The position numbers were made by a program, and so were the translations under genes. A stretch of 64,000 nucleotides of DNA, taken from the NCBI GenBank assembly GCA_039621445.1, contig CP154954.1, forward strand, positions 30,508,395 to 30,572,394. Direction: 5' to 3'. A model generated the notes under the pieces. The model had not been told where the DNA came from. It was given only the letters and a program-made list of their open reading frames with translations, and did no database searches. Position 1 is the first letter of the stretch. Each line of letters begins with the position of its first letter. Shown here one piece after another: positions 39,201 to 45,200 of this stretch. The DNA comes from Euglena gracilis (taxonomy: Eukaryota).

Positions 39201-42200
39201 CGCAAACACATGAAAACGCCTGGTTGTTCCATGATGGTTGGTCCATTTTTGTTTGAAATCCGTTGTGTATTATAGTGCTGAAAATGAAGTTTGGCACCCC
39301 AAAAAGGGGGGGTGCCTGCGCACAACAGGCCAGCCAGCTCTGGTTGGCACCTCCTGGCAACCAACAGTGAAGCTTTTCCGCTTTGCCACCCGGAAGTTGG
39401 TCAAGGTGGGTGGCCAGAGCCCCCTCCAGAAGGGAGGGGCTAGCTAACCTGCCCAAATTTCTAACCCCCTTGGTGTTCCTTAACATGACATATGATGGAG
39501 AGTCCATGCAGGCGCACCACACACACACACACACACAATGTGTGGAATAATGACACGAAATGTTGAAACAGTGATCGTGCCCATGAAGGTGACCACAAGC
39601 ACAACAAAAAGTCTTTGTGATGCATCCAGGGGTTTTTTTTCGTCTTGGACCCCGGGGGGTCCGGCCGAGCCCCCCCCCCCCCCCCAGGGGGTGTCCCCCC
39701 AGGGGGTGGTGGGATATACTTTTCGGTGCCGCAGAAAATTTTTGAAAAAGGTTCTTTTTTATAATTTTTCGCGATTTTTGGGCTTTTCAGGGAAAAGTGG
39801 GTTTGGTCCCCTGGAACCCCGCCCCAGGCGTTGGGTGGGTGGGGGGGAACCTCCCCCTCCCCCTGGGTTTAAAAAAAAAACCCTGGATGTCAGGAAGTCC
39901 TGCGGGATGGCATTGCCGGAGTAACCCATTTTTATCAGGCCTCGGCAACACAGTCAACCCGCTGCTGTCACTGTGCGACCCGAAGGTGTACCAGCTGCCC
40001 TGCCTGCTGCTGATCGGCTGGCGGGGGGAGCCGGGGGTGAAGGATGAACCGCAGCACGCCGCTCAGGGGGAGCTGACAGTCCCCATCCTAGAGAGCCTCC
40101 GGTGCCCGTACCAGGTGTGTGTGTGTGTGTGTGTGTGTGTGTGTGTGTGTGTGTGTGTGTGTGTGTGTGTGTGTGTGTGTGTGTGTGTGTGTGTGTGTGT
40201 GTGTGTGTGTGTGTGTGTGTGTGTGTGTGTGTGTGTGTGTGTGTGTGTGTGTGTGTGTGTGTGTGTTCCCCCCCCCCCCCGCGAATGTGCAGTTTTTTTA
40301 TTCGCCGAAATTTTCGAATTTTCCAAAATTCTGCCCCGGGCCAACCAACCATGGACCTTTGACGTCCTCCACACTCCATCCGCATCCCAAGGCATTTCCC
40401 GTGTCTGCCCCAGCACAGCTCCTGTGGGCCTGGGTTTTGTTCATGCCAGTTGGCTGGGGCCCTCCTCTGTCCCCCCTCAGGTCCTTCCGGCCGATGCTGC
40501 CGAGCAGAGACGCTTGGCCACCCTCCCCCCCCCCCCAACCCAGGGAGGGGGGCTGACGAGCGATGCCCCCGTCATAGTCATCCCCCCGCCCTCCGTTTGT
40601 TGCTGAAACGTGGAACATTTATTTTGACTGCACCGATGCAGCCTAGGGACCAATGTCTCTGGCTAGCCCTGATGGCAGACCCCCCCTCCCCCTTAGGTGG
40701 CCGATCTCATGCTTGTGTTTTTTGGTCTGTGTGCGCATTTTCGCGCACGTCGAAGATTTGATTTTGGCACTGGCGTTACCAGAACTCTGAGTAAAGAAGG
40801 AGCACAGGAGGAAATCCGGCTGAAATGCACTTTTTGGCCCTGACTCTCCCCAGATTTACTTTTTTTTGCTGTTTTTTTTTGAAGTCGGAATGACACGAAA
40901 ACCCCGCACCTGTCCCCCAAGAGTGAAAAAAAAAACACCGACAAAAAACAACAAAACCTCGGTACCGCCTCCTGCCAGCGCCGCAACTGCCAGCCCCCGG
41001 TGGTGCTCCCCAGGTGGGGTGGCAGGTCCACACCTTTGCTTGCATTTTGAGATTTTACGGCACGTTGTGGAGGCTTTTGAAGTTGTTTACGAAAGGAGTG
41101 GGAATGCGCATGCAGTTTATACAATGGATTAATGGATTGTTGGAGAATTCTGCCACCAGTTACAATTGAATTCGGTGGCAAGTTATCCATCATTGCCCCA
41201 CTGTGTTTTAAAGCTCTGACACCCACACAACAGCAAAAATGATGTCGGTGTGTGCAATTGTGCATTGGGATGGTGTGTAAATTTGCCCGCACCAACCACT
41301 TTAAAGTCAACCAAGACCCTCCTATGTCAGCGTGCTTGGAGCTGGAAAATGAATGTAACGAAACTGTGGCATTCCCCTGGTGCTGGACCCCTTCTTTTGA
41401 ATCAGGGAATTTCTTAAGCCGGAGGGTACTTTATTATATTTATTATATTTATATATTATTGTTATTGTTATATATTTATATATTGTTATTATATTATATT
41501 TTATGTTTTATTTTATTATTGTTATATTATATTATATTATATTATATTATTATTTTATACATTTTATATATTATTATTATTATTTATATATATTATTTAT
41601 ATTATGTTTATATTTATTATTTATAACAAAGTCGGGTCCAGCCCGGCCGGAGGCCGGGCCAGCCGGCCGAAGGCCGGGCCAGCCAGCCGCAGGCTGGCCA
41701 GCCAACTGGGCTGCCCAGCTCACCTATCCCTGCATTTTCCCCCGTCATCACAGCTTCCTCCATCACAGCCCCCCAGCTTTGATCTAGCTCCATCCATCAA
41801 AATGTCGAAAATGGCAAAAATGTGTTAGAAAATTTTGGTTTTCATCGACCCAGCCCAGCCCAGCCCCCTCCAGCCCCGGACCTCCCCCCCCCCGGGGGGG
41901 GGGGCCAGCCAGCAGCTCATTTCCAGCCAGCAGCCTTTTTGCCAGCCGGAGACTGGACACCCCCCCAGGGAGGGCCTTAAGAAATTCCCTGTTTTGAATA
42001 CTGCTGGTATTTTTGGGTGGTTGGTGTGCGCAGTTGCCCACATCAACCATCAAAATGGTTGCTTTTCGCAATTGCGCACATTGGCAAAATTTGTTTTCGA
42101 TTTGGAGCCTTAATAGCAGGGATTTCTGAGACCAGAGAAGAGTGGAAAGAGGAGGAGACCAGCGTGTGGAGGTGTGCTCAAAGTTGCGGTATTGTAAGGT

Positions 42201-45200
42201 ATGTCTGAGAGGATCAAATAAAGTGTTTCAGTGTATTTGCAATGTATGATCCCCTGAAAATCAAGATTTTCAAGTAAACTGACACGTTCATTTTCAGCCA
42301 AGACACCGTGCCTCATTTTCGGGCCAAAATACGGGGTGAGGGCAGCTTTAAACTCAGTTTTTCTGGATAAAGCCTGGAAGTGCTGTTTATTTTGATGTTT
42401 CTGGTGATAAGAAATGGTTTTTTGCCTGCTCAGTTGCTGATGCCCAAAGTCAGGCCCACAAGGCTGGTCTTTGAAGCAGTAGTATTTCTTTAATTTTTAC
42501 AAAAAAATTTCGCATTCGAGGATTTTCAAATTACAGCGATGCCAGGGGCGCCATCTAAATGGGACGTGTATTACGTTGCACAAGGGGTTGGTGTGCGCAG
42601 ATGCGACAAACCAACCAAACAGACTGTTTTTTCATTTGCCCAAACCAACTGGTTGTGCAAATTTACAAACACACTGCATGTGTGAAGCTGGCACACGTGA
42701 CTTTTTCACAGTTACGCAAATGGTTTGATGTGCGCATTTGCGCACACCGTCCATTTGCGTATTTGCCCACCCGACCACCAATTTCTCACACAGCCAAGGT
42801 TCAGGGTATTGTTTCAGGCGTAGGCACACCTCACCAAATCGTTCCAGTGACATCCCTTATTAATAAGGCAGCCTTTGGCAGGTTCCCAAACACACATTCT
42901 GGGTGATATTGGATGCTGTTTGCCGTGTGCTGTGGTGATACCTGCTCTTCGGCACCTCACCTGTCAAAGTCCCTGCTTCCATCTCCACGTCCTGGGGCAT
43001 CACATCACATCCTCCTTACATTTTTGGGTTTTTGGGGGTCAGGTCTCGTCATTTTTGTGAAAAATGTCGATGTGGGCATTTGCCCACATTGACAAAGAAA
43101 AAAAGCTTGAGTGCGAGATCGGCCGCCGAAGGAGGCCCAGGGGTCTACCAGGATTTCCCCAATTGCCCAGTTTGGACTGCTGCAGTTCACTCCCCCGGGG
43201 GGTATTGCAGTGTATGTCCCTACAGTGCTGGAATTATATTAGAGTTGCTGACCCGGCCAGGGGGATGCAACACAAGAGCACTGGTCACAAATTGGGCCAG
43301 AAGAGAAGTTAGTGCCAGCCAAAAACAGACAGGAAGCTTTACTTCAACTTAGGGGTACCGCAAACCCTTTAGCAGAAGCCTGATCATGACATGTTTTTTT
43401 GTCCGATTTTGATGATTTCTTGTGGATTTTTGTGGAAATCATTTTGTTTTCTCTGCTTCAGATTATTTCCCTGCTTCTTTTTACCCTCTTTCCAACTTCA
43501 TTTGCCCGCCTCAGAGGTCTCCAACCTTCACTTTCTCGACCCCTGTTTTATTGACCCTGCCGCATTGGAGTAATTGAACCTCTCAAGCCACATGTCCCTG
43601 TGGTGAGTGCAGAGCGTGTCCTTGCAGAGGCCTGTGACTACATGAGGGCCCACTCCGCACCGTTTGCCATTCTCGTCAAGTGTGCACGTGCAAATGTACA
43701 CAGTCGCGTCAGATATGCAACCCCCCTGACCTCATCAATCAGGGTTTGTGATGTGATGAGCCTTTTACCTGCCTGGTGCCATGAAACCCGGCTCGGCCCA
43801 GTCAGCCCAGCCGGAGGCCCGGCAGCACGGAACGGGCGCAAAGCTGGCCCTGGAGACCTATACAGGGTGATGGATGGTCCCTGGGCTTTATTTTAGGTCC
43901 CCAGTTATTCTTTTTTATTCCCCAGCATTTTTGGAAATATTTTGAGATTGTCGGGTTTTCGCCCCGAAACGGATCAAAAACAACCGAGTCAAAAAAGGCC
44001 AAAACAGTATTAGGAGTGAAACCCCTTTGAAGTGGCCGTCACTGGCTAGCCGTGGAGTTATGGGGAAATCAAAATACGGTTAGATAGGGCGTTCCAAGGG
44101 CTTTAGTTTAAGTCACTGGACATTTCTTTTGATTTTGGTCCATTTCCGAGATATTTTTGGAAACATCGATTTTTTGTCCCCGAAAACAGCCCAAGTTTGC
44201 CCCTGAAATGGGCCAAATTGGCCGAAATGACTGTAACTCGGGCTACACAAAGATTTGGGGGGAAAGGGCTTCCAAGGGCTTCATTTTGGTTTTCCAGGCA
44301 TTTCGTTTGATTTTGTTTCACTGTCCAGATATTGTGAAAAATCGATTTTTTGAGCAAAAAAAAGGCCCGAAAAACACCCCCAAAAATGGGCAATTTGGGG
44401 CATAAAACCGAGTTAAAACATGGGCCAGGCGTGTCAGTGGCCAAACCGAATCAGGGGCGATAGAGGGCCTCCAGGGCACATTTACACTTTTGAAATAATG
44501 TGTGATTTTTCAAATATGGAAAGGTCGATTTTTTGACCAAAAATCTCCCCCCACCGAAATGGCAGAGTCGAAGCTGGAGAGTATTGGCTAATTTCACCCA
44601 GTTTGGCCCCTTTGTCGGCTGAATAACTCGGGCCTGGCAGGGCGTCCTGGGGGGCAAACGGAGGTGATTCGGAAAGCCAGGATCCAGTCGCTTGCGACTG
44701 GGGAAAAACACGGGGTCATGGTAATAAACTGCGGTTCTCAGTGCCTACCCAGGGGTGGGGGGTTCTGAATAGATCCCAAAGGAGAAAAACAGGAATATTC
44801 ATCATTCTCCCCTCCCCTCGCAAAAAGGTTTCCAGTTTGCAAGAAGAAACAACACAAGGGACATTTTTTCACAGTCACAAAATATACTTTGGATTTGTGC
44901 GAAGAACTCAGAGAAATTTTTCAAAAAGGAAATCTTTCTGGAAAAGGAAATGCAGTGCTGGGTGACTTTTTATCACACAAGGCATTGGGAATACCAATCC
45001 CCCTTTCAGTGACCCCTCCCTCCAATAATATCCTCCCAAACAATATCCACACACCCAATATTTGGGTGGACCTGATTGTGCCCACCCAAATTAAGCACCC
45101 ACCAGTCTCAGCACACACCCCCATCAGGGCCTGGCTGCTATTGCTCAAATGTCCCTTTTTCCCCTCCCCTTGGACAGGAAGGATTTGTTCACCGATTACA

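Follow-up and report, generated by a model that had tools for sequence, protein, structure and literature searches.

How is an insert of 3104 nucleotides (nt) that has no GT-AG borders removed from the message of a Euglena gracilis gene, and did that insert begin as a transposon? The two questions are raised by a stretch of 64,000 nt of E. gracilis DNA (GenBank assembly GCA_039621445.1, contig CP154954.1, positions 30,508,395 to 30,572,394 of the forward strand), which we call the window and whose own numbering we use throughout. The plus strand of the window carries a gene for phosphonopyruvate decarboxylase, and the insert, at 40502-43605, stands in this gene directly after an exon of only 21 nt. 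A first-pass annotation, made by a model from the letters of the window, had described the insert as an old nonconventional intron bounded by CAG and CTG motifs, and as the aged end state of a process by which a transposon becomes an intron, with a young stage of that process at 47345 in the same gene. Based on the evidence given below, we believe that 40502-43605 is very probably a euglenid nonconventional intron, intron 5 of the phosphonopyruvate decarboxylase gene, that it is lineage-specific, and that it has been enlarged by at least two transposable element insertions since it arose.

The host gene

To build the gene model, the best protein match, P0001 (eukprot:EG_transcript_15698, 374 amino acids (aa)), was mapped on the window by tblastn, and all donor and acceptor pairs that reproduce the protein were then enumerated. 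P0001 has 98% identity over the 58-aa query exon and, going by the name of its record, we take it to be a transcript-derived protein of E. gracilis. The DNA of the window looks like that of a euglenid nucleus. The gene occupies 30348-49480 on the plus strand and has 13 exons, each intact and in frame in the window copy, with the stop at 49478-49480. The proteins hit by its exons are thiamine-diphosphate enzymes, and Pfam domains PF02776 and PF02775 are found on these hits. When the read-through open reading frame (ORF) at 39746-40603 was used in a protein search, the only eukaryotic relatives found were four proteins, P0001 to P0004, and there were no further genome-derived Euglena ORFs.

Nine of the 12 introns of the gene are GT-AG or GC-AG. 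A GT...AG placement is available for introns 1-4, 6, 7, 9, and 10, and a GC...AG placement for intron 8 (45884-46123), where nine boundary placements give the same protein. Introns 5, 11, and 12 have no placement of either kind.

Boundaries and splicing code of intron 5

Exon 5 is the 21-nt micro-exon (40481-40501, plus strand). It encodes VLPADAA, identical to residues 142-148 of P0001, and is preceded by a GT...AG intron at 40115-40480. Exon 6 (43606-43679, plus strand) encodes SAERVLAEACDYMRAHSAPFAILV plus 2 nt of a K codon, corresponds to P0001 residues 149-173, begins with A (AGTGCA at 43606), and is followed by a GT...AG intron at 43680-45177. Both of these exons are 100% identical to P0001, which crosses the junction between them as VLPADAA|SAERVLAEACDYM, i.e., ...CPYQVLPADAASAERVLAEACDYMRAHSAPFAILVKKDLF..., with no additional exon, and the spliced reading VLPADAASAERVLAEACDYM is found in P0001 letter for letter at the protein level. 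It is at this level, that of a protein reading across the junction, that intron 5 is absent from the mature mRNA.

Enumeration of the boundaries compatible with PADAASAERV gave only two solutions, 40502-43605 and 40501-43604, starting with GA or CG and ending with TG or GT, respectively, so that neither of them is GT-AG or GC-AG. In the first solution (3104 nt, plus strand, GAGCAG...CTGTGGTG), the 5' end at 40502 reads GAG CAG AGACGCTTGGC, and the 3' end at 43605 reads GCCACATGTCC CTG TGGTG.

According to Nomura 2025 (PMC12501133), the Euglena nonconventional splicing code is 5'-N3CDG-/-CH'GN5-6|R, and of all E. agilis introns 71.8% are nonconventional. In the knock-in experiments of that paper, the donor spacer had to be exactly 3 nt, with one base more or less abolishing splicing, and an acceptor spacer of 5 nt was best, 6 nt was tolerated, and 4 nt was poor (~20% of wild-type transcript). 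The placement 40502-43605 reads GAG|CAG...CTG|TGGTG|A, which fits N3-CDG...CH'G-N5|R, and every sequence term of the code is present in it: the CAG at 40505-40507, the CTG at 43598-43600, spacers of 3 and 5 nt (GAG at 40502-40504 and TGGTG at 43601-43605), and the purine A at 43606. By our own arithmetic, the chance that a fixed junction has both CAG and CTG correctly spaced, and the purine as well, is ~1 in 10,000. The same start is seen in intron 11, the other nonconventional intron compared in this gene; both begin with GAG-CA(G/A), that is, with the motif preceded by 3 nt.

The ends of intron 5 also pair with each other beyond the two motifs. In register, the 5' arm at 40505-40518, which begins with the CAG motif, and the 3' arm at 43587-43600 (read as 43600-43587), which ends with the CTG motif, form Watson-Crick pairs at 10 of 14 positions and, in addition, a single G.U pair (G40512.U43593), both arms being taken on the plus strand. 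Past the CAG/CTG motif, 7 of 11 positions pair, a level reached by 1.1% of the 146,028 CAG/CTG pairs in the window that lie 200-6000 nt apart. In the predicted duplex, the 3' spacer is paired as well, with the three bases at the end of the exon. The end stem of intron 5 is real but modest.

Points against the assignment and other readings of the stretch

Several points weigh against reading 40502-43605 as a nonconventional intron with 3+5 spacers. The duplex free energy of the intron 5 ends is -18.0 kcal/mol, compared with -14.6 +/- 3.6 kcal/mol for shuffled sequence (z -0.92), and 16% of 300 shuffles match it; for comparison, the ends of intron 11 have -31.5 kcal/mol (z -3.5). The intron ends in G directly before exon 6, where the Y|R tendency quoted in a 2024 review would call for a pyrimidine. 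In the exon cores that were compared, P0001 departs from the window at three residues; it therefore comes from another allele or strain and not from exactly the window sequence, L137 and L342 being examples of variants of the window allele. The choice of 3+5 over 4+4 spacers rests on the published spacer experiments.

The 4+4 placement is the sole other solution compatible with P0001. In it, the true boundaries would be 40501-43604 (CGAGCAG...CTGTGGT) and the mRNA would read ...GCTGCG|AGTGCA..., with the same protein. It calls for a donor spacer one base away from the required length, a change that abolished splicing, and for the acceptor spacer of 4 nt that left ~20% of wild-type transcript, as reported in Nomura 2025 (PMC12501133). 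Because these knock-in results disfavour 4+4, we prefer 3+5 and consider the alternative boundaries very improbable.

The three residue differences would also suit a second possibility, that the 3.1-kb insertion killed this allele and that the transcripts come from an uninterrupted allele or paralogue, with no splicing here at all. A dead allele is at odds with 13 of 13 exons being intact and in frame in the window copy, with the complete splicing code at the ends (the ~1e-4 chance calculated above), and with the lack of a target site duplication (TSD), which an unspliced transposon insertion would leave. We rejected this reading on the intact exons and the full code, and think it highly improbable. 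Removal by the spliceosome, using cryptic GT-AG sites or extra small exons within 40502-43605, was rejected as having hardly any chance of being right: we found no point in its support, no GT-AG or GC-AG pair in the boundary enumeration reproduces the protein, and in P0001, P0003, and P0004 no additional residue separates VLP...AA from the next exon.

For the structure of the insert, the first-pass annotation has held up well. Its coordinates and letters, the 21-nt micro-exon, the GAG-CAG start, and the CTG-TGGTG end are all in the sequence, as are the complementarity of the ends at 10 of 14 positions (with the G.U pair in addition) and the GAG-CA(A/G) start common to introns 5 and 11. The absence of GT and AG that it reported is matched by the two boundary solutions, neither of them GT-AG, and P0001 supports at the protein level the junction that it expected to be restored, reading straight across where extra exons with GT-AG sites would have shown. 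The 3+5 placement agrees with the code published in PMC12501133. As for the folding of the intron ends, the in-register stem stands, and the energy is no better than that of shuffled sequence.

Lineage specificity

P0003, the transcript protein of a relative, aligns with P0001 over 306 residues at 78% identity, and P0002, an ORF on a 1.9-Mb genomic contig, has an upstream exon in common with P0003. A run of 32 consecutive P0003 residues (VLPTEPEAADRVLSEACSYMTANNAPYAILVR), spanning the micro-exon and the next exon, is codon-compatible with one unbroken +2-frame stretch of P0002. Because the micro-exon and the next exon are contiguous in this stretch, the genome of the relative has no intron at the position of intron 5. 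P0002 diverges from P0003 exactly at the positions of introns 4 and 6 in the window, and in the published pattern the positions of conventional introns are shared while nonconventional introns are lineage-specific. The comparison fits a lineage-specific intron 5, which may have been gained in the lineage of the window organism or lost in the relative.

In the relative, the distance from the CPYQ exon to the fused VLPTEPEAADRV... exon is ~310 nt, compared with 3.5 kb in the window. The relative's intron after CPYQ appears to start with GC, not GT.

Insertions and repeats inside intron 5

The length of intron 5 (3.1 kb) is due to nested repeats. By BLAST, 1427 of its 3104 positions match elsewhere in the window. 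At 41403-41991 there is a nested element of 589 bp, found in a scan for terminal inverted repeats (TIRs) and TSDs, that resembles a MITE, a miniature transposable element with inverted repeats. It has CAG...CTG ends, a TIR that agrees at 17 of 18 positions (CAGGGAATTTCTTAAG.../...CTTAAGAAATTCCCTG), and an 8-bp TSD, TTTTGAAT, identical at 8 of 8 positions (41395-41402 and 41992-41999). A paralogous copy of the surrounding repeat has one TTCTGAAT and no element, giving a clean empty site at 63343-63425, and relatives of the element lie at about 5158-5578 and 26965-27124. With TSD, TIR, sibling copies, and empty site all present, the nested element is a TIR DNA transposon, or MITE, with an 8-bp TSD. 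A purine follows its 5-nt right flank, and an AT-rich tandem repeat (41430-41622) lies within it.

The nested MITE interrupts one copy of a dispersed repeat; this copy (40718-42649) is colinear with 62738-63992 at 73-97% identity in blocks; the window stops at 64000, and the right end of this paralog is beyond view. The full repeat possibly extends over ~2.5 kb, from 40673 to 43150, with uncertain boundaries, between 51-nt inverted arms (40673-40723 and 43100-43150) that are 71% complementary. Comparing the flanks of these arms by eye, we found no TSD. Farther downstream, a 60-nt piece at 43307-43365 matches the interior of another element with an 8-bp TSD. We also noted that short palindromes of the TGTGCGCATTTGCGCACA type occur at five places in intron 5 (41269-43101), and similar motifs upstream of it, near 36000.

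Elements with 8-bp target site duplications in the window

An unconditioned scan of the window for inverted repeats flanked by direct repeats, with 30 dinucleotide shuffles as control, found nine elements with exact 8-bp TSDs, compared with 0.2 in the shuffles. They lie at 99-2682, 3293-4829, 8625-9075, 16136-18071, 20508-20992, 22408-22813, 41403-41991, 47345-48959, and 52960-55181. All of them have CA...TG ends, and in five the ends are CAG...CTG. A relaxed scan limited to CA...TG ends gave 12 elements with exact TSDs, 6 of them CAG...CTG; the further elements are at 20017-21775, 24044-24351, and 36810-37070. Several of the exact-TSD elements are nested in one another.

One of these elements serves as intron 11 of the phosphonopyruvate decarboxylase gene. 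Intron 11 (47342-48964, in the plus-strand gene) holds the element 47345-48959, with a perfect 12-nt TIR, CAAGCACCTCTG, and an 8-bp TSD, GCTGCGAG. The element belongs to a family with three copies in the window (47345-48959, 16136-18071, and 99-2682) that have the TIR CAAGCACCT and tandem-repeat interiors, and the terminal ~100 nt of intron 11 are 94-96% identical to those of 16136-18071. Its motif is CAA/TTG, unlike the published CDG/CH'G. Removal of the element together with 3+5 nt would delete exactly one copy of the TSD and so restore the exon. The process that leads from transposon insertion to intron is visible at this locus in intron 11.

With 3+5 splicing, the exon would begin with the sixth base of the TSD. 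This base is a purine in 10 of the 12 elements with exact TSDs, and five of the 12 TSDs end in AC (GGAC, GAAC, GCAC). A preference for certain target sites could account for this bias, as could a filter imposed by the splicing code. ORF length across the 12 restored insertion sites did not discriminate between coding and non-coding sites in this GC-rich DNA. No transposase domain was found among the 61 ORFs scanned with Pfam, out of 320 ORFs of at least 95 aa in the window, and all of the elements in the window look non-autonomous. The element 99-2682 contains a 464-aa open frame (564-1955, plus strand) for which Pfam gave no match; this frame may be a translated tandem repeat, not a gene.

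Did intron 5 begin as a transposon?

Given such neighbours, intron 5 itself could have begun as a CAG...CTG-ended TIR transposon with an 8-bp TSD, inserted into an original target CTGCCAGT. Removal with 3+5 spacers would have taken the element and one copy of the TSD, after which the TSD drifted and the stem was kept. Much in the window suits this history: TIR elements with exact 8-bp TSDs are far in excess of expectation (9 against 0.2), they are CA...TG throughout and CAG...CTG in 5 of 9, and one of them, with family members at 99-2682 and 16136-18071, is intron 11 of the same gene. The two spacers, 3+5, add up to the length of the TSD. CAGGGA/CAGAC termini are found on these elements, and the ends of intron 5 (CAGAGAC... 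and, on the opposite strand, CAGGGAC...) are similar to them. The absence of intron 5 from a relative fits a gain, although absence from one relative fits a loss equally well. The proposal that nonconventional introns derive from MITEs dates back to 2014. In 2016, a direct repeat of 8 nt was described at a gapC intron that had been newly gained, and was interpreted as the result of double-strand-break repair, and a 2024 review describes TIRs and TSD-like repeats at such introns. Later papers still call the origin of nonconventional introns unclear.

The sequence of intron 5 does not bear this history out. At the positions where an 8-bp TSD around the whole intron is expected, CTGCCGAG (40497-40504) and TGGTGAGT (43601-43608) are identical at 1 of 8 positions, which is the chance level. 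A search of the window for further copies of the two 14-nt termini gave nothing convincing; the best match has 2 mismatches, stands in the opposite sense to a TIR, and is of a quality of which ~0.4 are expected window-wide by our own arithmetic. In BLAST of intron 5 against the window, only interior repeats matched, and the terminal 170 nt and 240 nt had no match. The stem is no independent evidence of a TIR, because the splicing code itself demands the same pairing. We infer that the stem is explained better by selection for splicing, which kept or made it, than by the decay of a relic, because neutral decay that erased the TSD would leave a neutral TIR below the 10 of 14 pairing observed.

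A separate observation concerns the 5' end of intron 5, CAGAGACGCTTGGC (40505-40518), which is 2-3 bases away from the TIR of the intron 11 family read from the inside outwards, CAGAGGTGCTTGG. These matches are at 48948-48961, 18060-18073, and 16134-16147, and their orientation is unfit for a shared terminus.

There is no remaining evidence in intron 5 that it began as a TSD-flanked transposon. Weighing the surroundings of the intron together with the intron itself, we hold a transposon origin to be a serious possibility with somewhat less than an even chance of being correct.

On this question, the first-pass annotation fared unevenly. The process that it saw at 47345 stands for intron 11, with its perfect 12-nt TIR, 8-bp TSD, and two family members, and is not supported for intron 5 as the aged end state of that process. 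An eroded TSD with a retained stem is not supported by the TSD positions (1 of 8), by the termini, for which there is no second copy in the window, or by the duplex energy (z -0.92), and other repeats with the termini of intron 5, which it suggested searching for in the genome, were not convincingly found in the 64-kb window. Its view of an interior enlarged by later insertions is supported, given the 589-bp element with an 8/8 TSD and an empty site and the dispersed repeat around it.

Splicing code, transposon ends, and a probable mechanism

Both the geometry and the idea of a MITE origin are already in print. In the open-access literature, we found no statement that 3+5 equals the length of the TSD, and no superfamily assignment for these introns. 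We raise, as a tentative proposal that we would not yet favour, that the Euglena splicing code (3 nt before CAG, 5 nt after CTG) mirrors at the RNA level one superfamily of CA...TG-ended transposons with 8-bp TSDs. Intron 5 would then be an old, lineage-specific product whose spacers have drifted and whose stem has been selected, and the nested MITE could be spliced as an intron within an intron.

On the reading of intron 5 that we hold very probable, that of a nonconventional intron, the CAG at +4..+6 of the pre-mRNA would pair with the CTG at -8..-6, and the helix would be extended by GAC/GUC, G.U, and UGGC/GCCA pairs, bringing both splice sites of intron 5 together. Apparently non-spliceosomal machinery would then cut 3 nt 5' of CAG and 5 nt 3' of CTG, beside the purine-initial exon, and ...GCTGCC would be joined to AGTGCA.... 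From our analysis come the sequence signature, the lack of a GT-AG solution, and the transcript-derived protein across the junction. For the cut positions we rely on published papers, and likewise for the order of removal, in which the conventional introns go first, and for the release of a circular RNA; according to these papers, the machinery is still unidentified.

Intron 5 alone means little, being one more example of a common class. For the idea of a transposon origin, the support from the whole locus is unusually direct: a single 64-kb window brings together proposed source elements in the form of ordinary transposons in non-coding DNA (with an empty site and 8-bp TSDs), one such element present as an intron in a coding region (intron 11), and the match between 3+5 and the length of the TSD. 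Their co-occurrence makes the MITE-origin hypothesis directly testable, both genome-wide and by knock-in.

Other features of the gene and the window

Conventional intron 4 opens with a perfect (GT)76 microsatellite at 40115-40266, the first repeat unit of which is the donor GT. Intron 12 (49077-49429) has three possible placements, none of them GT-AG, and is supported by one residue of P0001 plus the C-termini of P0003 and P0004. It falls outside the CAG/CTG code and outside the CGG derivatives mentioned in Nomura 2025. Downstream of the gene, the ORF at 50503-51084 on the plus strand has a PAT-complex Asterix domain (E 6.8e-11) and marks a neighbouring gene; this domain and a sub-threshold LED repeat were the only matches in the Pfam scan of 61 ORFs. 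Rfam gave no matches in the whole window at gathering thresholds.

Comparison with known systems

The MITE-like TIR elements of the window itself (41403-41991 and 47345-48959) are like intron 5 in having CAG/CTG termini and imperfect inverted ends, and in that 3+5 is the length of their TSD. They differ in having TSDs identical at 8 of 8 positions, TIRs of 12/12 to 17/18, and siblings, where intron 5 has 1 of 8, ends paired at 10 of 14, and no sibling in the window.

Among DNA transposons, members of the hAT superfamily, e.g., Ac and hobo, have 8-bp TSDs and CAG- or TAG-type termini. The window elements are like them in TSD length and in starting with CAG or CAA. The G at the fifth base of the hAT consensus is present only in the CAGGG elements of the window, and none of the 61 ORFs scanned has a transposase domain. 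Merlin transposons are represented in E. gracilis by two families with 8-bp TSDs and TIRs with conserved 5'-GG ends, as described in PMC8101967. The window elements are like these in the length of the TSD and differ by their CA...TG ends, compared with GG in that source.

Introners offer a parallel at the level of process: a DNA transposon inserted in an exon is removed at the RNA level, and its TSD supplies part of the splice signals (PMC11282704). Their removal is spliceosomal and uses GT-AG-like sites, whereas the removal of intron 5 is non-GT-AG and stem-dependent.

The closest likeness is to the nonconventional introns of euglenids (Tessier, Milanowski; Nomura PMC12501133). Intron 5 has their non-GT-AG borders, CAG/CTG pairing, and spacers of 3 + 5 nt, along with a purine-initial exon, extended pairing of the ends, and a lineage-specific position while neighbouring conventional introns are shared with the relative. 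Between these introns and intron 5 we see no difference in kind; intron 5 is long, follows a 21-nt micro-exon, and has an end duplex that is weak by energy.

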